This document shows, in pieces, positions 1-10,588 of a stretch of 10,588 nt of DNA. The position numbers were made by a program, and so were the translations under genes. The DNA is from a virus (Duplodnaviria; Heunggongvirae; Uroviricota; Caudoviricetes): positions 1 through 10,588 of IMG/VR virus record IMGVR_UViG_2657244943_000008; one strand, given 5' to 3'. The notes under the pieces were generated by a model that searched no databases, was not told the DNA's origin, and saw only the letters and a list, made by a program, of their open reading frames with translations. The stretch's first letter is position 1. Each line of letters starts with the position of its first letter.

Positions 1-366
1 TGATGCATATGATGGCATATCAGGTATCTGATTTTCCCCTGTTCCCACATTTCGTTTTGCCGCTTCTCCCAAACCAAGGTTTTCGAGAGCCGTTTTCACC
101 GTGCCATCCGATTTGATATCGCCAAACGGATTCTTGCGGCTTAACAGCAGCGCACGAAGCGCTGTAAGCAGCTGGTCATGCCGCCCCTTCTCTAGGCTGG
201 CACCGGATGCCTCCACAACACTGCAAAGTTCCTCCTGCAACATGTCAAAGTAGTCATCATCCAGATCGGTGGCAGGTGTGCCGGTCTGGGGGTTACCACG
301 GGTAAAACCGTTCTTACCCGCGCCGAACTTATCCTTCTGCGCGGTTTTCGTGTCTATACGATGCAT
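1..366 (-). CDS. Phage tail-fibre-like protein, N-terminal ~122 aa; gene continues beyond the left edge of the window
   Basis: Open minus-strand frame from ATG at 366-364 to position 1 with no stop (so absent from the complete-ORF track). GGAG lies 6 nt upstream of the ATG. Translation begins [55 protein letters not shown] and contains ...[25 protein letters not shown], a Gly-rich motif I recall as typical of enterobacterial phage tail-fibre proteins. Family assignment is from memory only. Confidence 0.45.
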
Positions 367-478
367 GGATTACTCCGGATACCCGGGCAGGAAGCGCCCC
401 GTCGTCATACTCACCGGCCTGAATGACCTCAACACGCATACCGTCCGGTGACCATTTCAGATCTTGTTTCAGGATCAT
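332..478 (-). CDS. Small hypothetical ORF (48 aa) between the Rz-like gene and the tail-fibre-like gene
   Basis: ATG at 478-476 preceded by GGTGA; translation [49 protein letters not shown]; overlaps the start of the 1..366 gene by about 32 nt in another frame. No recognisable family. It could be real, or the frameshifted 5' part of the downstream gene. Confidence 0.2.
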
Positions 479-527: not shown

Positions 528-878
528 TTACGCCGCTGCAATCTTCAGCAGTTTGATGGCCTGCGAATCGACCAGCATCCCGCCGGTGCGCTTGGTGGTA
601 TAAAAACCGACAAACGGTTTATTGGTGTACGGGTCACGCAGAATGCGGGTGCCGATACGGTCAACGATGGTGTAACCCCGTTTGAAGTTACCAAATGCAA
701 TGGCTTTCGCATCAGCGGCGATATCCGGCATCTGTTCGTTTTCAGCGATACCGTAACCCGCCAGAGAGGACGGCTGCCCCAGCTCCAGCCCCGGACGCCA
801 CAGATAGTTAACCGCCCATGACAGACAGACGATGATGCAGATAACCAGAGCGGAGATAATCGCGGTTAATCTGTTCAT
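528..878 (-). CDS. Rz-like inner-membrane protein (i-spanin-like N-terminal anchor with a divergent C-terminal domain)
   Basis: The ATG at 878 overlaps the TGA of the endolysin gene (ATGA), which is the lambda R/Rz arrangement. The first ~24 aa (MNRLTAIISALVICIIVCLSWAVN) closely match the lambda Rz N-terminal TM anchor as I recall it. The remaining ~90 aa (…GYGIAENEQMPDIAADAKAIAFGNFKRGYTIVDRIGTRILRDPYTNKPFVGFYTTKRTGGMLVDSQ…) do not resemble the Rz coiled-coil domain. Confidence 0.6.
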   Translation of the reverse strand: MNRLTAIISALVICIIVCLSWAVNYLWRPGLELGQPSSLAGYGIAENEQMPDIAADAKAIAFGNFKRGYTIVDRIGTRILRDPYTNKPFVGFYTTKRTGGMLVDSQAIKLLKIAAA

Positions 879-1351
879 ACCTCAATCTCTCTGACCATTC
901 CGCCCGCTTCTTTGAATTTTGCAATCAGGCTGTCAGCCTTATGCTCGAACTGACCATAACCAGCGCCCGGCAGTGAAGCCCAGATATTGCTGCAACGGTC
1001 GATAGCCTGACGAATATCACCGCGATCAATCATCGGTAAAGCGCCACGCTCTTTAATCTGTTGCAGTGCCACAGCGTCCTGGCTTTTCGGAGAGAAGTCT
1101 TTCAGGCCAAGCTGCTTGCGGTAAGCATCCCACCAGCGTGAAAGAAGTTGATAACGGCCTGCAGCTGTTGATTTGAGTTTCGGGTTTAGCGTGACAAGTT
1201 TGCGAGGGTGATCGGAGTAATCAGTGAAGAGTTCTCCACCGACAATAACGTCATAACCGTGGTTACGTGTCGGTTGTCGCCCGTTATCCGTTCCCTCTGA
1301 CCATGCCACCATATCCAGGAAAGCTTTACGCTGGGAATTTAGTACCTGCAT
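875..1351 (-). CDS. R: Endolysin, lambda R-type lytic transglycosylase (158 aa)
   Basis: Translation MQVLNSQRKAFLDMVAWSEGTDNGRQPTRNHGYDVIVGGELFTDYSDHP…REIEV is nearly identical over its full length to lambda gpR as I recall it (same 158-aa length, catalytic Glu in the WSEGT motif). A strong AAGGAG RBS lies 6 nt upstream of the ATG, inside the end of the holin gene. Confidence 0.92.
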   Translation of the reverse strand: MQVLNSQRKAFLDMVAWSEGTDNGRQPTRNHGYDVIVGGELFTDYSDHPRKLVTLNPKLKSTAAGRYQLLSRWWDAYRKQLGLKDFSPKSQDAVALQQIKERGALPMIDRGDIRQAIDRCSNIWASLPGAGYGQFEHKADSLIAKFKEAGGMVREIEV

Positions 1352-1354
1352 AAA

Positions 1355-1681
1355 TTACTCCTTAGAGCCACCAAACTTGTTACCGATTACTCTCATTGCA
1401 GCCCCACGAATAGCATCAACACCGATCAGCCCCACCCCACCACCAATGGCAACAGATAGTGATTTAGGCCATCCGACATACTCAAGAGCGGATGCAAAAG
1501 TCAGCGTCAGAGCGCCACAGAGTAGAATTTCGAGTGTTTTTCGCTTCCAGCCGCCACCACCGCCAAAATAGGCAATACGTAAACCAGCCATAACAATCGA
1601 CATAATCACTGCGCCCAGCGGTGTGTCTCCACGCCACCAGCTCTGGACCAACTCCAGCCATGTATTTGGGTTATGAGGCAT
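1355..1681 (-). CDS. S: Holin, class I with three predicted TM segments (108 aa)
   Basis: Sits immediately upstream of the endolysin on the same strand. Three hydrophobic stretches (GAVIMSIVMAGLRIAYF, LEILLCGALTLTFASALEYV, LSVAIGGGVGLIGVDAI) and a charged C-terminus, the same architecture as lambda S. GAGGTGAGAG lies upstream of the ATG at 1681. Sequence similarity to lambda S is modest. Confidence 0.75.
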   Translation of the reverse strand: MPHNPNTWLELVQSWWRGDTPLGAVIMSIVMAGLRIAYFGGGGGWKRKTLEILLCGALTLTFASALEYVGWPKSLSVAIGGGVGLIGVDAIRGAAMRVIGNKFGGSKE

Positions 1682-1822: not shown

Positions 1823-1855
1823 CAGAAACGACAAAACCCGCTCGATGGCGGGTTT
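1823..1855 (-). terminator. Intrinsic-terminator-like hairpin oriented on the minus strand (possible tR'-like late-operon terminator)
   Basis: Plus strand shows AAACCCG-ctcgatgg-CGGGTTT at 1834-1855. On the minus strand the stem is followed by TTTTGTCGTTTCT. It lies ~150 bp upstream of the holin start, at the boundary between ~50% GC phage DNA and the AT-rich cassette. Confidence 0.45.
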
Positions 1856-1972: not shown

Positions 1973-3148
1973 ATGGATATAACTTGTTTAGAATGTGGCA
2001 ATGTTCTTGACGACCCAACTGTAGCTTGCGATAAATGCGGTGCCACGCCTCATGTTGTAGTGCTGGGCAAACAATCGTACTTTCCTATTGGTGCTGTAAC
2101 AGCAAATCTTGAAAAAAATGATTCAAGAGCATTTGATTATCGATTAGGTGAAGTTTGGGATCTAAAAAATGAAGTCACATCTGAATTCATAACCAGAATT
2201 GAGAAAAAATTTAGCCGAAAAAACAAATTTCATAACTTCCTAGACTCAGATCACAACCCTTCATCCATTCCTACGATCCTAAAAAAATACATTAATAAAA
2301 ATAATGAATTCATTGATTTATCTAGAGCTATAATAGAGAAGCTTAAACATAATGCTAATAACGAATCGAGAGTTGCCCAACTTCAGGGGGGGAGCGTTGT
2401 TTTCATCCACTATAAGTCTACCGAACCAGAGGATTTGGGGAAACTTCTAATCGTAATGGTTGATAAACAAAGCGCCTATGACTTTGATTCGGATAAGTTG
2501 ACCCCAACAAGATTAAATCCAATTAATACCGATGCCTTACGGCAGGCTGCGATGTTCGATTTAACTTTATTCGAAGCCAGTTATCCAGAAAACAAGGGTG
2601 ACTCATATGTACATTTCTTGCAAGGTAAATCTAAAAGCGATTTTTTCAAAGACTCATTAGGTTGCCGACATGATTCGGACAATAAAAGAAGCATTCAGCA
2701 ATTATTCAGTGCTATAGATATTTTTGCTAGTAAAAACTCACTCGGTCGTGTACTGCGTGATACTATTGACAATGAAGTTAAATCCTTACTGGAAAAAAAA
2801 TCAAAAGATAAACACGGAAATAAGTCCGTTAAGATAGAGGATATTTCAAAAATAATTGACTCATGCCTGACTGATTCACACAAATGTAAGGGAACGTTTG
2901 TCGATTTTGTTAATCTTAATGGTTTCCAGATTGACCCTCAATTTGAACCAACTCCTAAAGCAGCTGAAAGCGCGCTTACAATTGAAGTGGCAGATAACGA
3001 CAATAATTTTAAGTTGAAAATAATGCGTGGAGCTATTGGAGACGAAAAGTCAAATAAGCCTGTAATTCTCACTGACAACAAATGCGAAATTGTGATAAAA
3101 TTGAGTCAGGCAAATTATGATGAACTCAAAAGATATAGAGACAGCTAA
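1973..3148 (+). CDS. Zinc-ribbon plus NdpA/YejK-like nucleoid-associated-domain protein (391 aa); cassette gene 1
   Basis: N-terminal CxxC…CxxC (CLECGN…CDKCG). The central and C-terminal region aligns by eye to E. coli YejK/NdpA as I recall it: GGSVVFIHYKS…LLIVMVDKQ versus GGIVLFCHYRY…LLVAVLNN, and YVHFLQGKSKSDFFKDSLG versus [22 protein letters not shown]. About 30% GC against ~50% in flanking phage genes. Confidence 0.6.
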   Translation: MDITCLECGNVLDDPTVACDKCGATPHVVVLGKQSYFPIGAVTANLEKNDSRAFDYRLGEVWDLKNEVTSEFITRIEKKFSRKNKFHNFLDSDHNPSSIPTILKKYINKNNEFIDLSRAIIEKLKHNANNESRVAQLQGGSVVFIHYKSTEPEDLGKLLIVMVDKQSAYDFDSDKLTPTRLNPINTDALRQAAMFDLTLFEASYPENKGDSYVHFLQGKSKSDFFKDSLGCRHDSDNKRSIQQLFSAIDIFASKNSLGRVLRDTIDNEVKSLLEKKSKDKHGNKSVKIEDISKIIDSCLTDSHKCKGTFVDFVNLNGFQIDPQFEPTPKAAESALTIEVADNDNNFKLKIMRGAIGDEKSNKPVILTDNKCEIVIKLSQANYDELKRYRDS

Positions 3149-3150
3149 TA

Positions 3151-4365
3151 ATGACAATTGCTGATGACTTATCAAGATTAGCGCAGATTATTAACGGAGC
3201 CTCAAGCAGAGTTGAGGGCTACTACACTGTCATAACTCTTGAAGAAAGCATTGTTATTGTAAATAGTTCTGAAATAATTAGACTGTTACAATCTATAGGT
3301 TATAAAAAGGCAACAACCTGCATCGAAAATAATGAAATTTGGCTAGATCGCCAAGCTTCATCTTGGGATGATGCTATAATTTATGAGAATGTTGAGTCTT
3401 TTTGGTCTAGAGTAAACACCCAAAACGCTCTTCCGAAAAATTATATCATCGGAACGCCGTTAATACTCCCTACTTCTAAGAATGAAAGCATCGAAAAAAT
3501 CCATATTTTCTTTATGTGGAAAGATATCCTTTCATTAATTTCTGATCATCATAACAGTGACTGCTCTGTCTTATTTTTCACCAATGAAGACAAAAGTTAT
3601 ACAGTCGAACTCACGCATTTTTTACAATATAGCGAGATTAATCGCTTATCGAACTCGTCTCTTAAATATGAAATTATAAAGGAGCTTCTCGACACAATAA
3701 AAATCAATGATTTACACAAAAGCGAGCGCAAGCTCGTTATACGCTCAGCCATAAACGAAGTATTTAAAGCAAATGGTACGTTCAATTTCTTTGACTTGCT
3801 TAACTCTACTGAACTCGTCAGGAAAAAATATGATGAACTATATGAGATTTACACAAAGAGGTTTTCTGTAAATAAAATTCTTAACGAACTCGATGAGAAA
3901 AATCTTGAGTTCACGAGTAAAATTAACGAATTCATATCATCTAATCAGACAAAAGCATTGACTATTCCCGGTGCATTAATAGCAGCTGGTGGCTTAGTGA
4001 AGGCTAATGAAACAACCGAAGCAATATTGATTATCGCAGGACTTTGGATGATAAAAAAAGTCAATTACATTTCTATTGAGATATTCAATGAAACATTCGA
4101 CAACTTACGTTCTCGAGTGGAGTCCGCTTTCGATAAGTATTTAAAGTTTGAAGAAAATAAAGAAATCAAAGATAATGCAGATAGTATTAAGAGTAGCATT
4201 ACAGGTTTGATTGATAAAGCTAAAAAAAGGATGAGAACTGTTAAATATCTCGCATCAGCCATGTTTTATGGAGGCCTTATTTACGTTGGATATAAACAGT
4301 TCCCAGTCTTTTTTGAAAAATCGGCAGTAAATCTATTTTATTTTTTATGCCATACTATAAGCTAA
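3151..4365 (+). CDS. Hypothetical protein with C-terminal hydrophobic (membrane-anchoring) segments (404 aa); cassette gene 2
   Basis: ATG at 3151 is 2 nt after the gene-1 TAA (TAATAATG), indicating translational coupling. The N-terminal ~260 aa are soluble with no motif I recognise. The C-terminal part has hydrophobic stretches ALTIPGALIAAGGLV, AILIIAGLWMI and VKYLASAMFYGGLIYVGY. Its 3' end overlaps the Q gene convergently by 21 nt. AT-rich. Confidence 0.6.
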   Translation: MTIADDLSRLAQIINGASSRVEGYYTVITLEESIVIVNSSEIIRLLQSIGYKKATTCIENNEIWLDRQASSWDDAIIYENVESFWSRVNTQNALPKNYIIGTPLILPTSKNESIEKIHIFFMWKDILSLISDHHNSDCSVLFFTNEDKSYTVELTHFLQYSEINRLSNSSLKYEIIKELLDTIKINDLHKSERKLVIRSAINEVFKANGTFNFFDLLNSTELVRKKYDELYEIYTKRFSVNKILNELDEKNLEFTSKINEFISSNQTKALTIPGALIAAGGLVKANETTEAILIIAGLWMIKKVNYISIEIFNETFDNLRSRVESAFDKYLKFEENKEIKDNADSIKSSITGLIDKAKKRMRTVKYLASAMFYGGLIYVGYKQFPVFFEKSAVNLFYFLCHTIS

Positions 4366-4701
4366 CATTGCTAAACAGCCATCAACAAACCCCATTGCAG
4401 TTTGCAGTTCCTTCCTAATTGTGCCATCAGAGCATTTTCTCTTCTTCGCAATAGTGCGTAATGAGATACCGATAACAAAGTGGGCGATGATGAGCTCATA
4501 TTCATCTGGTTTATACCTTCTCAACCGAGCCACACAACTGTCTATCATGATGCCTTCGTCATCATCACACTGAATCCGTGACTTTTTGCCATGAGGTAAA
4601 AGTCCCTTGAAACCAGCCGCTATCGGCTGCCAGTCCACTCCGCTATTGTCTGAAGCAGCCCAAGCTCCCCAACGATCCATTACTTCATACATATCACGCA
4701 T
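4345..4701 (-). CDS. Q: Late-gene antiterminator Q, short QuuD-like family (118 aa from the ATG at 4701)
   Basis: Translation [35 protein letters not shown]…CDDD… resembles DLP12 QuuD as I recall it ([35 protein letters not shown]…CDDD…). The track ORF begins at a TTG at 4716; the ATG at 4701 with GGAGAAAG upstream is the more likely start. Confidence 0.8.
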   Translation of the reverse strand: [118 protein letters not shown]

Positions 4702-4887
4702 CAACTTTCTCCACAAAATCAGGCCAGCACACCAATTGCCAGCGCACGATCGATAAGACCAGGGACAATTACTGACTCTTGCCGGTGAGCCTGACGGAAA
4801 ACTCCGCGCAGCAGGTCATTAATATCGTTCTTAATTAACTGATTATTTATCTCATCACTGAATATCTTTATATAGTGAGGACTTATT

Positions 4888-5712
4888 ATGTCTCAGAACT
4901 TAGACGCAACCGCAATTAATCAAATCCATGCCCTTATTTCTGCTCAGGGTGTTAATGAAATTATCAGTAAGATTGGTGCCGACGCAGTGGCATTACCTGA
5001 AAATTTCCGCATTCATGATCTGGAAAAATTTAATTTAAATCGCTTCCGTTTCCGTGGCGCGCTTTCCACTGCCTGCATCGATGACTTTATCCGTTATTCT
5101 AAAGATCTTGCAGATGAAGGCACCCGCTGCTTTATCGATGCCGATAATATGCGTGCCGTCAGTGTTCTTAACCTGGGTACTATTGATGAACCAGGTCACG
5201 CAGATAATACCGCCACTCTCAAACTGAAAAAGACAGCACCGTTCTCTGCACTGTTGTCTGTTAACGGCGAGCGTAACTCCCAGAAGTCACTGGCAGAATG
5301 GATTGAAGACTGGGCCGACTACCTTGTGGGCTTTGATGCTAATGGTGACGCCATTCAGGCAACAAAAGCGGCTGCGGCAGTCCGTAAAATCACAATTGAA
5401 GCGAACCAGACTGCTGATTTTGAAGACAATGACTTCAGCGGCAAACGCTCCCTGATGGAGTCTGTCGAAGCGAAGACCAAAGACATTATGCCAGTGGCAT
5501 TTGAATTTAAATGCGTTCCGTTTGAAGGTCTGAAAGAACGTTCTTTTAAATTACGCCTCAGCATTATCACTGGCGATCGTCCTGTACTTGTTCTGCGCAT
5601 TATTCAGCTGGAGGCTGTGCAGGAAGAAATGGCTAACGAATTTCGCGATCTGCTTGTTGAGAAATTCAAAGACAGCAAAGTAGAAACCTTTATTGGTACT
5701 TTCACCGCCTGA
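4888..5712 (+). CDS. yfdQ: DUF2303-family prophage protein, YfdQ-like (274 aa)
   Basis: Length and N-terminus ([14 protein letters not shown]…) match my recollection of E. coli CPS-53 YfdQ. It is followed by a YfdR-like HD-domain gene, as in CPS-53. GAGG RBS 8 nt upstream. Function unknown. Confidence 0.6.
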
Positions 5713-5724
5713 TTTGATTACTGC

Positions 5725-5747
5725 AAATGCCCCTGCGGGGGCATTTA
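5725..5747 (+). terminator. Hairpin AAATGCCCC-tgc-GGGGCATTT followed by AT, between the yfdQ-like and yfdR-like genes
   Basis: 9-bp perfect inverted repeat with a 3-nt loop, 13 nt after the yfdQ-like stop. The U-tract is short (ATTTAT), so it may be a partial terminator or attenuator. Confidence 0.4.
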
Positions 5748-5840
5748 TGGAAACGTAATTAACTCAATAATCGCCGGATGGTGAGGGCTTCCTTTTACCA
5801 GAATTCAGTGCGGTGCAGCGCAAATAACGTGGAGAACAAA

Positions 5841-6377
5841 ATGTCATTTATTAAAACTTTTTCTGGGAAGCATTTTTATTATGACAGGATAAATAAAGAC
5901 GACATCGTTATTAACGATATCGCGGTTTCCCTTTCAAATATCTGTCGCTTTGCAGGACATCTTTCACACTTCTACAGCGTCGCCCAACATGCGGTGCTTT
6001 GCAGCCAGTTGGTGCCGCAGGAATTTGCTTTTGAAGCGTTAATGCATGATGCAACAGAAGCATATTGCCAGGATATCCCCGCACCACTGAAACAACTTCT
6101 TCCTGACTATAAACGGATGGAAGAAAAAATAGACGCCGTAATCCGTGAGAAATACGGGTTACCTCCTGTTATGAGCACGCCTGTGAAATATGCCGATCTC
6201 ATTATGTTGGCAACCGAGCGTCGCGATCTCGGGCTTGATGATGGCTCTTTCTGGCCTGTGCTGGAAGGTATCCCGGCAACAGATATGTTCAAAGTTATTC
6301 CACTGGCACCGGGCCATGCCTACGGGATGTTTTTGGCACGCTTTAAAGAGTTACATACGATACATAAACAATCCTGA
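5841..6377 (+). CDS. yfdR: HD-domain phosphohydrolase, YfdR-like 5'-deoxynucleotidase (178 aa from the ATG at 5841)
   Basis: H…HD motif (HLSHFYSVAQHAVL…ALMHDATEAY) typical of the HD superfamily. The ATG at 5841 has GGAG 8 nt upstream and gives 178 aa, matching the YfdR length I recall. The track ORF starts earlier at 5778 without an RBS. Confidence 0.7.
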   Translation: MSFIKTFSGKHFYYDRINKDDIVINDIAVSLSNICRFAGHLSHFYSVAQHAVLCSQLVPQEFAFEALMHDATEAYCQDIPAPLKQLLPDYKRMEEKIDAVIREKYGLPPVMSTPVKYADLIMLATERRDLGLDDGSFWPVLEGIPATDMFKVIPLAPGHAYGMFLARFKELHTIHKQS

Positions 6378-6432
6378 CAGTGAAATTAACCAGTGAAATA
6401 GTTTTGTAGCAAAAGAAATGAGGTTATCAAAA

Positions 6433-6678
6433 ATGCTTCAAATGCTGACACTTGAAGAATGGGCTTCTGAAAAATACAGAAGTAATCCTCCAAGTGTGTC
6501 CACATTGCGTCGTTATGCTAAGCAGAATTTATTTTGTCCACCGGCCATGAAACAAGGCCGGTTATGGCGAGTGCGTGAGGACGCCGAGTTAGTTGGAGAG
6601 CTGGTAACACCAGTAATTAAGAAAAATGACTCATTACTTTTGCAACGGATTTTGAGTGATGGCAGCCAGACCGCGTAA
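6433..6678 (+). CDS. xis: Excisionase, lambda Xis-like (81 aa from the ATG at 6433)
   Basis: MLQMLTLEEWASEKYRSNPPSVSTLRRYAKQNLFCPPAMKQGRLWRV parallels lambda Xis (…LTLQEW…RSLETVRRW…FPPPVKDGREY…). GAGG lies 9 nt upstream of the ATG at 6433; the alternative start at 6418 has no RBS. Overlaps the int start by 20 nt as in lambda. Confidence 0.75.
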   Translation: MLQMLTLEEWASEKYRSNPPSVSTLRRYAKQNLFCPPAMKQGRLWRVREDAELVGELVTPVIKKNDSLLLQRILSDGSQTA

Positions 6679-7786
6679 AAATAATGTTTCGGTCCCTAAC
6701 TTATATCCGCTTTATAGTAGGAAAGTAAATAAAGTCTATTGGCGGTATAAGCATCCAGTAACAGGGAAATTTCATGCGCTAGGAACGAACGAAACCGAAG
6801 CCATCGCTATTGCCACTGAAGCCAATACGCGACTGGCTGAACAAAGAACTCGGCAGATTCTGGCCATCAGTGACAGGATAGCAACCAGCAAAGGGAAAGC
6901 AATCACAACGTCAACCTGGTTAGATCGCTACCAAGCGATCCAGGATGACCGACTGAAAAGTGGTGATATAAGACTCAACACTTATAAGCAGAAAGCCAAA
7001 CCAGTATCCTTACTTAGGGAACGAGTAGGAATGAAGTTGATCTCAGCCGTTGATGTCAGAGATATAGCACAATTGCTTGACGAGTATATCGCTGCCGGGC
7101 AGCCGAGAATGGCGCAAGTCGTAAGGTCTGTATTGATCGATGTATTTAAGGAAGCACAGCATTATGGCGAAGTTCCGCCAGGGTATAACCCTGCTCTTGC
7201 GACGAAGCAACCCAGACGGAAAATCACCCGTCAACGCCTCAGCCTCGAAGAATGGAAAAAAATCTTCGATATCGCAGATGCCAGTCATCGTTACATGGGA
7301 AATGCCATGCTCCTAGCATTGGTCACTGGACAGCGTTTGGGGGACATATCTAAAATGAAATTCAGCGATATTTGGGATGACCATCTACATGTCGAACAGG
7401 AAAAGACTGGAAGCAAAATCGCAATTCCTCTTTCTCTTCGCCTCAATACGATTAACTGGAGTTTACGCGATATAATAGCCCGCTGCCGTGACTATGCAGT
7501 CAGTCCATACCTAGTGCATTTTTTCCGTTCAACTTCACAAGCAGAACGTGGGGCACAGGTTAAATCCAATACATTGACGATGAACTTTAGCAAAGCGCGA
7601 GACTTGGCCGGAATTGATTGGGGTGATGGAACTCCAGCAACTTTCCATGAACAAAGATCTTTATCTGAGCGCCTTTATAGGGAACAAGGGATTGATACGC
7701 AAAAACTACTCGGACATAAATCTCCTAATCAGACAGCTAGATATCATGATGATCGTGGAAAAGATTGGGTAACTCTAGCAATTTGA
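6659..7786 (+). CDS. int: Tyrosine integrase, lambda Int family (375 aa from the ATG at 6659)
   Basis: Full-length similarity to lambda Int as I recall it, including the catalytic signature: R in LALVTGQRLGD, H-x-x-R in FHEQRSLSERLY, and H plus Y in LLGHKSPNQTARYHDDRG. The track start at 6656 is a GTG; the adjacent ATG at 6659 is more likely. Confidence 0.92.
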   Translation: MAARPRKNNVSVPNLYPLYSRKVNKVYWRYKHPVTGKFHALGTNETEAIAIATEANTRLAEQRTRQILAISDRIATSKGKAITTSTWLDRYQAIQDDRLKSGDIRLNTYKQKAKPVSLLRERVGMKLISAVDVRDIAQLLDEYIAAGQPRMAQVVRSVLIDVFKEAQHYGEVPPGYNPALATKQPRRKITRQRLSLEEWKKIFDIADASHRYMGNAMLLALVTGQRLGDISKMKFSDIWDDHLHVEQEKTGSKIAIPLSLRLNTINWSLRDIIARCRDYAVSPYLVHFFRSTSQAERGAQVKSNTLTMNFSKARDLAGIDWGDGTPATFHEQRSLSERLYREQGIDTQKLLGHKSPNQTARYHDDRGKDWVTLAI

Positions 7787-7871
7787 TTTTTATATTTTTA
7801 TTAAAAATTAAAAAATTCAGACGCATCATATCAAAAATTTATTAGTAAAATAGATAACTAATATTTTTCTT

Positions 7872-7888
7872 GGGGGGAGGAGCCCCCC
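7872..7888. other. GGGGGG-aggag-CCCCCC palindrome embedded in an AT-rich region between the int stop and the convergent membrane-protein gene
   Basis: 6-bp G/C stem with a 5-nt loop; a T-tract lies upstream on the plus strand and no clean U-tract follows on either strand. It could be a weak bidirectional terminator or part of the prophage attachment region, which is expected within ~100-150 bp of the int stop. Confidence 0.3.
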
Positions 7889-7920
7889 GCACATTATATT
7901 GAAGATTAATAACTGATATA

Positions 7921-8886
7921 TCATTTCTTAAATTTAAGAATTTCTTTTAAGGCTTCTACTATATTTTTATCCCCATCCATGCTAATTTTCTCCTTCTCAA
8001 GAGAAACCGTAGTCTGCCCTTTTTCAAGAACAAAATTACGTTCTGTAGCCATGAGATTTTTAATAACCTCACCCATTAAGTCTTCGTTTCTAATGCCCTT
8101 AAGAAACTTTATCGCCAAAACTTTGGAATCGATATTGGTAAGCTCATTTTGAAAATACTTGACCTCATCAAAACCATTTTTGTACAACTTCAAGAAGAAA
8201 TAAGCAAATAGTTCAACGACAATTACAAATGATAATTTGGGGGCCATGTGAAGTATATATTCAAGCTTATCATTTGTGTTAATAGCATTTGTAACTGAAT
8301 ATCCAAGGTAAAGTATCCCACCAAAAGCAATAAATGCACCTAAAACCAGATTAACCCCACCACGTCTATTTAATCTATTTATTTCATTTTCTAAACGATA
8401 TACAATATCATTATAGTGTTTACTAATTTCTATTTGATTTCTAAACGAATTTATATCATTTTTCAAACTTAAATCTGCAGCCAAGAGAGTATTGCCTACA
8501 ATCTTTTTTTTAGCATTATCGATCAACTCTTGCCTTTCTTTTGATGTGAGTAAAACACCATTTAAATCTTTCGAATCATTTGTAACTAGTTGATTAAACT
8601 CTTGCTTTAAGGAGTCTAATTCTGACTTTAACTCTTCATATGAGTTAACATTCTTGTTTTTACTTTCACCTATTCCTTTATTAACATAATTTAATAAAAA
8701 TGCTGCCATAAAAGTTAAAATCAGAGTTGCAATAAAGAAACTATTTTCATCTTGAAGTATTTTAGCAACAGTGGAAAAATAACTTACGAGAAGAGGCTGA
8801 GCATTATAAAGCCCCATTCCTAACAAAACTGCAATTGCCGTACCTAAAACGAACCTTACTTCTTGTCTTTTTAGTAACCTATTCAT
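7921..8886 (-). CDS. Four-TM membrane protein with central coiled-coil and C-terminal soluble region (321 aa); candidate membrane effector
   Basis: Hydrophobic segments VRFVLGTAIAVLLGMGLY, FFIATLILTFMAAFLLNYV, VNLVLGAFIAFGGILYLGY and LSFVIVVELFAYFFLKLY. The linker between TM2 and TM3 (ELKSELDSLKQEFNQL…RLENEINRLNRR) is heptad-like. About 28% GC. Weak GGTG RBS. No confident family assignment. Confidence 0.6.
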   Translation of the reverse strand: MNRLLKRQEVRFVLGTAIAVLLGMGLYNAQPLLVSYFSTVAKILQDENSFFIATLILTFMAAFLLNYVNKGIGESKNKNVNSYEELKSELDSLKQEFNQLVTNDSKDLNGVLLTSKERQELIDNAKKKIVGNTLLAADLSLKNDINSFRNQIEISKHYNDIVYRLENEINRLNRRGGVNLVLGAFIAFGGILYLGYSVTNAINTNDKLEYILHMAPKLSFVIVVELFAYFFLKLYKNGFDEVKYFQNELTNIDSKVLAIKFLKGIRNEDLMGEVIKNLMATERNFVLEKGQTTVSLEKEKISMDGDKNIVEALKEILKFKK

Positions 8887-8970
8887 TATGACACCATATG
8901 TTATTATTTAACGTTTTATTAAATTCAAAATACTGCCCGAGATTTTAATACTCATAACAAAATAAGAATT

Positions 8971-9000
8971 AATATACAAAATTTTTCATACTACAAGCAA
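8971..9000 (-). promoter_or_regulatory. Candidate sigma70 promoter for the 4-TM gene (minus strand: TTGCTT, 18 bp spacer, TATATT)
   Basis: Minus-strand -35 TTGCTT (plus 8995-9000) and -10 TATATT (plus 8971-8976) with an 18-bp spacer, about 85 nt upstream of the ATG at 8886. AT-rich context, so motif matches are weak evidence. Confidence 0.3.
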
Positions 9001-9004
9001 GGCT

Positions 9005-9090
9005 TTGATAAATTGTTTTGATAACGATTTGATAACCGTTAGAAATCTAATAATAAAAACGGGAGCCATCAGACTTCCGTTTTTGATAAC
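9005..9090. repeat. Four direct copies of TTGATAA(C) upstream of the 4-TM gene promoter
   Basis: TTGATAA at 9005-9011, TTGATAAC at 9018-9025, 9029-9036 and 9083-9090; the middle pair is spaced 11 bp (one helical turn). One copy on the minus strand reads tATCAAatcgTTA, matching the IHF WATCAANNNNTTR consensus. Possible operator or architectural sites. Confidence 0.4.
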
Positions 9091-9448
9091 CCGGAGCCTA
9101 GATTTGGCTACCCCAGCAGGAAGATGCAACGTCCACGATTGTCACAAATCAGGCTGGCTCGAGGCAGAATGGCGACTGTGAGGGAGAAACGAAAGTTCAC
9201 ACTCGTTCTCACTGCTGATGGGGGGTTCACTAACAATCTCAAGCACTAATTAATGGACGAAACTCTACACAAAGCCCCATTTTGTAGGAAAACTGGTAAC
9301 GGATTAGTAATACTACCCGGCCAGAACATGACCGACCGGGTAAAAAAATATCCTGACGCTACTAAGCCTTTAAGATTTGACTAACCTAGTGCTTACATTA
9401 TAGAGAACTGCTTATGCCTTCTAAATTATAGAGTAAAAATACTCACCA

Positions 9449-10588
9449 CTAAAATACAACTTGCTTCCTTAGTAAATCACCTCTAGCATTTGAGTAATAT
9501 TCAGTCGAATTGCCAGTAACTTCCCGGAGTACTTCTGTTACAAGGTTATTTAGTATTCCCGTAAGTTTAAGAAACTCTCCATATGAATTAGGTTTCTCAA
9601 ATATCTTTCTGGTACCGTTCGGCACATCGAGCTGCATTGCAGCATCATGATCCTGGGCTAAGTGATTTAGCCAGCGGTGAGTCTCAACAAGTACAGCAAG
9701 TTCATAGTATGTACTATGACGGAGATTATTAGCATCTGCATGGTACATTAGTGAAGCAATATCATAGCTGCTTAGATCAATACTCGAACCTTCGTCTCCA
9801 CTGTCTGCTTTCAGGGTTTTGAGCATGCGAATTGATTTTCTTAATCCACCATTGCATTGATCGCATTTGTCTTTGATACGTTGCATGTGGAGGAACGGTT
9901 CATTGTAGATACGCTCTCGTTTGTTTTTATCAATTATGGTAACTCCACGATGTTCTTCTTTTTTTGTGAGTTGGTACTCTTTCGTATCCCACCATATGCC
10001 TGGCACTACATCAACTTCTCTTTGAAGACTCCCCCCCGTTATTCTCAAGGACTTGGCGTTATTATCGTCAACCTGAGCAGCAGGAAATGTCATTTTTAGA
10101 GCATCTCGAGCTGCACGCCTAAGTTCAATGATGACGTCTCGGCCATCTTTCTCAGCTGCACTATAGCTGCCAACTCCACCGCTATCATACATAAGCATCT
10201 GAGTATCAATAATTAAAAGATCTACATCACTGAAACCTTTGATATGGATATCTAGGGGAACAGAACCTTGTACCCGAAAATCTAGGTTTAGGTCTAATTT
10301 CTTAGTCAGCTGATTTTCAATACGATACGCGGTTTCGAATGAGATCTCTGTATAGCGGGGGTCAACTGGTTGCATCGCACCAATGACATACCGGATAGCT
10401 GAATCGTCTCTTCCTCTAGACTCCCAACTTTCATTAAGCTCAAGAGCATCTTCAAGCAATGCATATTTTTCAAGGCCATCATATCTTTGATTACTCATTG
10501 ATTCTGTGGCTACTCGCAACTGATCATATGTCCCTTTACGACGTGACTTCATGCGTTCAATACGCGAACTATATGATGAATTAGACAT
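9449..10588 (-). CDS. Pol-beta-superfamily nucleotidyltransferase with cGAS/DncV-like (CD-NTase/SMODS-like) active-site motifs (at least 379 aa; start at the window edge)
   Basis: GS…D-x-D motif (RVQGSVPLDIHIKGFSDVDLLII) and a downstream third acidic motif REVDVVPG, resembling the [DE]hDhhP of OAS/cGAS/DncV-type enzymes. About 42-48% GC. The ATG coincides with the last base of the window, so the true N-terminus may lie further upstream. Confidence 0.55.
   Translation of the reverse strand: MSNSSYSSRIERMKSRRKGTYDQLRVATESMSNQRYDGLEKYALLEDALELNESWESRGRDDSAIRYVIGAMQPVDPRYTEISFETAYRIENQLTKKLDLNLDFRVQGSVPLDIHIKGFSDVDLLIIDTQMLMYDSGGVGSYSAAEKDGRDVIIELRRAARDALKMTFPAAQVDDNNAKSLRITGGSLQREVDVVPGIWWDTKEYQLTKKEEHRGVTIIDKNKRERIYNEPFLHMQRIKDKCDQCNGGLRKSIRMLKTLKADSGDEGSSIDLSSYDIASLMYHADANNLRHSTYYELAVLVETHRWLNHLAQDHDAAMQLDVPNGTRKIFEKPNSYGEFLKLTGILNNLVTEVLREVTGNSTEYYSNARGDLLRKQVVF

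Follow-up and report, generated by a model that had tools for sequence, protein, structure and literature searches.

The DNA analyzed here, a window of 10,588 nucleotides (nt) from IMG/VR virus record IMGVR_UViG_2657244943_000008, very probably belongs to a defective prophage of the e14/SfV family that arose from an ancestor of the JB2/APEC O2-211 type, about 41 kb in length, by three internal deletions. The complete element is 15.4 kb long and the window covers its larger part. It is an ordinary cryptic prophage, a form of decay not described before in a well-known family. One of the deletions (J1, 7.8 kb) took out the early region entirely, with the divergent cI/cro-type genes ymfK and ymfT, the replication genes and the nin-type genes, and brought the yfdQ-yfdR-xis-int block beside the late antiterminator gene Q. 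The other two (J2 and J3) account for the loss of the packaging, head, tail and baseplate genes.

Positions 3840226-3850813 of the genome of Escherichia coli ARS-C301 (NZ_CP132983.1), a strain that originates from cattle faeces, match the window at 100% identity. The prophage is inserted in the 3' end of icd, which is the e14 site. It is bounded by a direct repeat of the icd 3' end (218 nt, 93% identical, spacing 15,372 bp). The two copies lie at 11191-11408 and 26563-26780 of L001, the ARS-C301 locus read with 15 kb of flank on either side of the window, where icd and an icd' pseudogene are annotated. The gene order begins with icd, a Cap15 effector, an oligonucleotide cyclase (CD-NTase), a gene for a protein of 321 amino acids (aa), intE, xisE, an HD hydrolase, yfdQ, a yfdP stub and Q. 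These are followed by a two-gene cargo, holin, endolysin, a lysis-protein stub, a capsid stub, tail-fibre and assembly genes, pinE, mcrA, the icd' pseudogene and iraM.

Membership of the e14 family is evident at both ends and in the integration genes. At icd, the phage carries a replacement 3' end and the displaced icd' pseudogene remains as the direct repeat. The integrase and excisionase are of the IntE/XisE type and contain the lambda Arm-DNA-bind_1, Phage_integrase and Exc domains of Pfam. The distal end, as annotated in RefSeq, carries a Pin invertase, an invertible tail-fibre segment and mcrA. The cryptic prophage e14 of K-12 has the same attachment site and end structure (PMC6379469). 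A protein-gene attachment site is also consistent with the ARAGORN scan, which found no tRNA or tmRNA gene in the window. No RNA family was found there in Rfam at gathering thresholds.

The deletion junctions were placed by blastn and local alignments against the full-length icd-site prophages of JB2 and APEC O2-211. Both prophages have the gene order of the ARS-C301 element, with early and structural genes filling the points that are joined in it, and they still hold the 26 kb that is lost here. The retained blocks are 99.5-100% identical to JB2 over the blocks compared, a divergence of about 0.1%. The left block of the window is 99.9% identical to APEC O2-211 and the right-hand block only 93%. 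JB2 shares the layout of APEC O2-211 and has the same defence and nucleoid-protein cargo as the window. It differs by two insertion sequences (IS), of the IS5 family and IS1, one inside the nucleoid-protein gene and one between yfdQ and yfdR.

J1 lies at 4755-4756 and has a 2-bp overlap (AA). The segment missing at this point is 7,813 bp, of equal length whether measured against APEC O2-211 or JB2. Between yfdP and Q, APEC O2-211 carries in order ymfI, a hypothetical gene, ymfK (LexA-family, cI-like repressor), ymfT (cro-like), ymfL, a DUF4222 gene, a helix-turn-helix (HTH) replication-type gene, PerC/yfdN, a Dam-type methylase, a LexA-family regulator, RusA, KilA-N and a DUF968 gene. All of these are within the J1 loss, the DUF968 gene for the most part, together with the first 99 codons of yfdP. 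The integration genes now adjoin Q because J1 deleted this early region. The first-pass annotation had proposed a cryptic remnant with its immunity and replication region deleted, and the 7.8 kb of early genes that the intact icd-site relatives carry at 4755/4756 bears this out.

The other two junctions are at the opposite side of the lysis genes. J2 (808-810) has a 3-bp overlap (TTA) and 6,944 bp are missing. Past the endolysin, APEC O2-211 has a complete Rz, iss, an HNH gene, the small and large terminases, ymfR, portal, protease and capsid; in the window the rest of Rz, the 5' three quarters of the capsid gene and everything between them are gone. J3 (381) has a 1-bp overlap (A) and 11,182 bp are missing relative to APEC O2-211, in which the capsid gene is followed by head-tail connectors and then by a Mu-type contractile tail and baseplate. 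The J3 loss comprises head-completion, tail and baseplate genes. The missing DNA totals 25,939 bp, which gives the ancestral length of about 41 kb. Overlaps of 1-3 bp at all three junctions indicate illegitimate recombination and not homologous or site-specific recombination. Since the icd repeats are just 15.4 kb apart, the missing genes are not elsewhere within the element. Alignment against intact prophages, one of the checks suggested in the first-pass annotation, resolved three deletions.

The sequence around J1 accounts for the composition of the interval between Q and yfdQ. Q (4345-4701, minus strand) encodes a full-length protein of 118 aa (Pfam Phage_antitermQ, 4e-47) that differs from Q of APEC O2-211 at one residue (D66E). 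The RefSeq annotation and the Pfam match both place its start at ATG 4701, and TTG 4716 is the first possible start. The integration and yfdQ/yfdR-like genes had been described as abutting Q with no immunity or replication region, and this agrees with the list of open reading frames (ORFs) and the Pfam scan, in which no repressor, cro, replication or nin gene was found between Q and yfdQ. The interval had been given as a 171-bp divergent intergenic region. The adjacency stands, but the gap is 186 bp when counted from ATG 4701 and is not native intergenic DNA. It is a composite of four pieces: the native spacer between Q and DUF968 (4702-4718, 17 nt), a 3' stub of DUF968, the gene found upstream of Q in intact relatives (4719-4756, minus strand, last 11 codons IDRALAIGVLA and stop), a 3' stub of yfdP (4757-4822, plus strand, last 21 codons DQGQLLTLAGEPDGKLRAAGH and stop; a partial gene in RefSeq) and the native spacer between yfdP and yfdQ (4823-4887, 65 nt). 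The DUF968 protein of APEC O2-211 ends in ...FRFIDRALAIGVLA, of which the window retains IDRALAIGVLA, and its YfdP ends in ...LQEDQGQLLTLAGEPDGKLRAAGH, of which the window retains the residues of the stub.

A minus-strand frame of 57 codons without a start codon had also been noticed in this interval and taken for the remnant of a deleted gene. The frame stops at 4719-4721 and reads exactly as it was quoted. Its last 11 codons are indeed the C-terminus of the DUF968 protein, but the remaining 46 codons are open by chance and run antisense to the yfdP stub and the spacer. The promoter scan yielded 19 consensus sites in all, against 25 in shuffled controls, and gave no support for a promoter in 4702-4887. 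Terminator-like sites were somewhat enriched (15 against 8).

On the other side of Q, the lysis block is joined to the tail-fibre gene through a series of stubs. The lambda-family holin (1355-1681, minus strand; Pfam Phage_holin_3_1, 6e-25; WP_001120496.1) and the lambda R-type endolysin (875-1351, minus strand; PDB 1am7, lambda lysozyme, E value 1e-100; WP_001197765.1) are full length and each is identical in JB2 and APEC O2-211. The Rz spanin gene is cut after codon 23 (811-878, minus strand), and the window has no counterpart of the portion of Rz that carries the Rz1 annotation in SfV, a functional temperate phage of Shigella (NC_003444). The Rz stub is fused in frame, by chance at J2, to the final 93 codons of a major capsid gene of the HK97 family (528-810, minus strand; a pseudogene in RefSeq), which matches only positions 187-280 of the 280 in the Pfam Phage_capsid profile (3e-27). 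The resulting ORF (528-878, minus strand) would encode 116 aa, with the Rz signal anchor (23 aa) at the N-terminus and the capsid C-terminus (93 aa). Downstream of the capsid stub are the first 32 of 66 codons of a small head-module gene cut by J3 (382-478, minus strand) and the last 12 nt of the baseplate gene ymfQ (370-381, minus strand), which reach up to J3. The tail-fibre gene follows (1-366, minus strand; Pfam Gp53-like_C, a gp53-like C-terminal domain) and continues past the left end of the window. It is apparently complete, with 207 aa against 216 aa for orf21 of SfV and 94.8% identity. The first-pass annotation had regarded the lysis cassette as directly followed by the tail fibre. 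The proximity of the two results from J2 and J3 and is not direct adjacency, as the stubs of Rz/capsid, the head gene and ymfQ intervene.

At 1834-1855 (minus strand), about 150 nt upstream of the holin gene, a strong GC-rich hairpin precedes a run of T residues and is a candidate for the late terminator tR'. Its position would put the late promoter and the site of Q utilisation inside the 291-nt gap between holin and cargo or a little past it, far from the Q gene.

Comparison with functional relatives indicates how much has been lost. The immunity genes ymfK and ymfT, present in APEC O2-211, JB2, SfV and K-12 e14, fall inside the J1 loss, as do the HTH replication-type gene and its neighbours. 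Terminase, portal, protease, capsid and tail genes are inside the J2 and J3 losses apart from the 93-codon capsid stub, and the lysis cassette, with holin and endolysin intact, has only the beginning of Rz. The element is thus without repressor, replication, terminase, portal, complete capsid, tail and spanin genes. Judged from the sequence, every testable defining feature of a functional lambdoid prophage is missing, and the element should be unable to replicate, package or lyse normally.

The integration genes are preserved. yfdQ (4888-5712, plus strand; DUF2303, 4e-91), the yfdR-like gene for an HD-family hydrolase (5841-6377, plus strand; 178 aa by the RefSeq start), xisE (6433-6678, plus strand; 81 aa, 79/81 identical to XisE of K-12) and the lambda-type integrase gene intE (6659-7786, plus strand; 375 aa, 350/375 identical to IntE of K-12) follow one another on one strand. 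The int, xis, Q, holin and endolysin frames had been reported as intact, and they are full length, as are yfdQ and yfdR. Six proteins common to the window blocks and the APEC O2-211 prophage show 0-22 substitutions and none is truncated. With a divergence of about 0.1% from JB2, the intact frames reflect the recency of the deletions and say nothing on selection.

Loss of the early control region has predictable consequences for expression. By analogy with lambda-type regulation, Q would have lost its promoter with it, and no expression of holin and endolysin is expected past the late terminator. The K-12 element e14 is the only cryptic prophage of that strain with SOS-inducible excision, which rises 356-fold (PMC3105296), and it keeps ymfK and ymfT. 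The absence of this region from the ARS-C301 element predicts that SOS-inducible excision has been lost, unlike in e14.

The distribution of the junctions was examined in complete and draft genomes. A megablast search of 5,426 complete RefSeq E. coli genomes recovered J1-J3 in ARS-C301 only, and an exact-match scan of JGI metagenome contigs found no copy of J1. The Rz'-capsid' fusion protein, which is specific to J2, is indexed in 127 blocks of a public assembly collection. Three NCBI draft assemblies (GCA_012485815.1, GCA_054591435.1 and GCA_017725795.1) align collinearly with ARS-C301 across J1, J2 and J3 with 99.99-100% identity. The remnant is stable within a lineage, for which the fusion can serve as a specific marker.

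One part of the remnant varies within this lineage. The tail-fibre segment (1,885 bp, L001 13198-15082) lies between inverted 20-bp sites (TTCTCCCAAACCAA[C/G]GTTT). The right-hand crossover site is at 63-82 of the window (CTTCTCCCAAACCAAGGTTT) and its partner is beyond the window at L001 13198-13217. The segment is inverted in GCA_012485815.1 relative to ARS-C301 and the other two assemblies, and the remnant is otherwise 100% identical. A flip in an otherwise identical remnant implies that the Pin invertase acted very recently. The enzyme probably retains its activity, in an element that lacks a virion for the fibres to decorate.

The three retained blocks each hold a defence gene or system: the cyclic oligonucleotide-based antiphage signaling system (CBASS), the DS-1 pair and McrA. 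The DS-1 pair constitutes the two-gene cargo between Q and holin, on the opposite strand to both, and has a GC content of 33-37%. The first gene (1973-3148, plus strand) encodes a YejK/NA37-like nucleoid-associated protein (Pfam NA37, 1e-23; NF053868 DS1_1_antiphage, 451 bits, cut-off 330). The second (3151-4365, plus strand), which starts 2 nt further on and overlaps the 3' end of Q convergently by 21 nt, encodes the partner anti-phage protein (NF053869 DS1_2_antiphage, 375 bits, cut-off 315). Both score above the NCBIfam equivalog cut-off, which identifies the pair as DS-1. The three cargo proteins of 391, 404 and 321 aa had no match in PADLOC (2023), and the first two were then recognised as DS-1 by NCBIfam. 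The pair fits the YejK-domain system validated in the DefensePredictor study (PMC13092281). Type II PANGU also consists of a nucleoid-associated protein (Pag2A) and a partner (Pag2B), the latter with an acidic DNA-mimic N-domain and a C-terminal transmembrane domain (bioRxiv 10.64898/2026.04.06.716658). DS-1 resembles it in the combination of nucleoid protein and partner, a likeness by description only. The N-terminal 265 residues of the DS-1 partner have a net charge of -9. A crude hydropathy scan of the protein (window of 19 residues, threshold 1.6) gave no transmembrane segment.

CBASS occupies the gap between int and attL (window 7787-10588 and L001 25581-26615). The cyclase gene (CD-NTase, 9449-10588, minus strand; PADLOC Cyclase, 6e-137) overlaps the gene of the two-transmembrane (2TM) Cap15 effector, which lies just past the right end of the window and is followed by icd (PADLOC 2TM Effector, 9e-81). 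This pair of overlapping genes identifies a type I CBASS. The 321-aa gene (7921-8886, minus strand; 28-33% GC) is located in the same gap. Its product combines three hydrophobic segments with an extended polar middle region, and matched nothing in Pfam, NCBIfam or PADLOC. CBASS and the 321-aa gene are kept side by side in three strains, ARS-C301, JB2 and CFSAN061772. The corresponding gap holds DarT and a macro-domain protein in APEC O2-211 and ymfD-ymfE-lit in K-12 e14.

The cargo offers a plausible reason for the retention of these three blocks, with CBASS, the DS-1 pair and McrA with its Pin-invertible segment each in one of them. The cargo also suggests a further reading, in which the element is a domesticated defence island: the surviving parts would have been selected, and int, xis and the att repeats or the Q-lysis module would have been co-opted, for example by read-through from DS-1 driving yfdQ-yfdR-xis-int. 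A known or candidate defence function in 3/3 blocks and the ongoing Pin inversion within an otherwise identical lineage are in keeping with this. The DS-1 operon (1973-4365) shares its strand with yfdQ...int, and the scan detected no plus-strand terminator-like site in 3355-5488, so that read-through from the cargo into these genes is conceivable. Against domestication, the divergence of about 0.1% from an intact prophage is too recent for purifying selection to be visible, the deletions end inside genes and left useless stubs, and three blocks are too few to be told from chance. We consider domestication possible but unlikely. Its more specific form, a selected, semi-mobile cassette in which J1 set yfdQ-yfdR-xis-int downstream of DS-1 and excision or HD hydrolase expression would be coupled to the expression of a defence system instead of to SOS, appears decidedly improbable on this sequence.

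The juxtaposition of Q and the integration genes might instead have come about by recombination between two resident lambdoid prophages. Such prophages are mosaic, and the module Q-DS-1-holin is also found in a DLP12-type prophage of AF5, where it is preceded by the DLP12-type nin region (ybcN-ninE-ybcO-rusA-ylcG); the nucleoid-protein gene of DS-1 is broken by an IS in both AF5 and JB2. The unequal identity of the two sides to APEC O2-211 could be read in the same way. However, both sides of J1 find their match at 99.5-99.9% in a single prophage at the same locus, that of JB2, with order and orientation unchanged, the J1 overlap is only 2 bp, and the flanks are the normal flanks of the icd site. 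A hybrid origin is therefore very improbable.

A phage satellite of the P4 type or a phage-inducible chromosomal island (PICI), reliant on a helper, would likewise be small, with intact int, xis and att repeats and a defence cargo like that of many satellites. No satellite regulator, primase/replicase or capsid-redirection gene was found in the Pfam and NCBIfam scans of the ORFs, and each block reproduces part of a full prophage almost without change, with truncated genes left where the blocks meet, which makes this origin extremely improbable. An artefact in the assembly of the ARS-C301 genome, suggested by the single occurrence among the complete genomes and the empty metagenome scan, was rejected as next to impossible because the same structure is found in the three independent draft assemblies and the fusion protein in the 127 blocks.

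The derivation by three deletions from an intact icd-site prophage is thus retained, and several points weigh against parts of it. No intermediates with one or two of the deletions were found among the complete genomes and the assemblies read, and the deletions may have arisen in any order or as a single complex event. The role of the cargo in retention is plausible and draws on three blocks in one lineage, in which it is inseparable from chance. The inactivity of the element is a prediction from the genes that are missing. Silence of Q and the lysis genes would follow from lambda-type regulation, and the promoter scan was uninformative. Basal excision may still occur, as int, xis and both att repeats are intact.

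Several known elements resemble that of ARS-C301 in part. K-12 e14 is of nearly the same size (15.2 kb against 15.4 kb) and shares the icd site with the duplicated icd 3' end, the invertible tail-fibre segment, pinE, mcrA, the icd' pseudogene and iraM. It differs in keeping ymfK/ymfT, ymfL/ymfM and fragments of the terminase, portal and baseplate genes, and has neither Q and the lysis genes nor yfdQ/yfdR. The ARS-C301 element in contrast keeps Q, holin, endolysin and yfdQ/yfdR and has no immunity region. CFSAN061772 (L002 16677-20008) exhibits a third, independent decay route at icd: an XRE/cro-type immunity region and an intact yfdP-like gene are kept, and the region from the replication gene through the tail fibre is lost, apparently by one deletion.

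SfV is laid out in the same order, with int-xis...yfdR-yfdQ-yfdP homologues, cI/cro, replication genes, Q, S-R-Rz, an HK97-type head, a Mu-type contractile tail and a short tail fibre. The identity is 95-96% over yfdP'-yfdQ-yfdR and the tail-fibre gene. Unlike the ARS-C301 element, SfV is complete, integrates at another site, carries gtr cargo by int, and has a larger, different Q with a methyltransferase and not DS-1 between Q and S. DLP12, a cryptic lambdoid remnant of K-12, also keeps its integrase and a Q-holin-endolysin block with no working immunity or replication region. By description and not by alignment, DLP12 differs in its argU site, its other integrase, and the retention of nin-region genes and a complete Rz.

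Standing alone, the ARS-C301 element is one more cryptic lambdoid prophage and of little weight, and RefSeq already marks its gene stubs as partial. It provides a base-resolved case of the decay of an e14-type prophage, in which three microhomology deletions can be read against a near-identical intact relative at the same site. Together with K-12 e14 and CFSAN061772, it shows one prophage family at one locus following different decay routes. The attL-int and Q-holin intervals emerge as two cargo hotspots of e14-type phages, which carry different defence systems in different strains.

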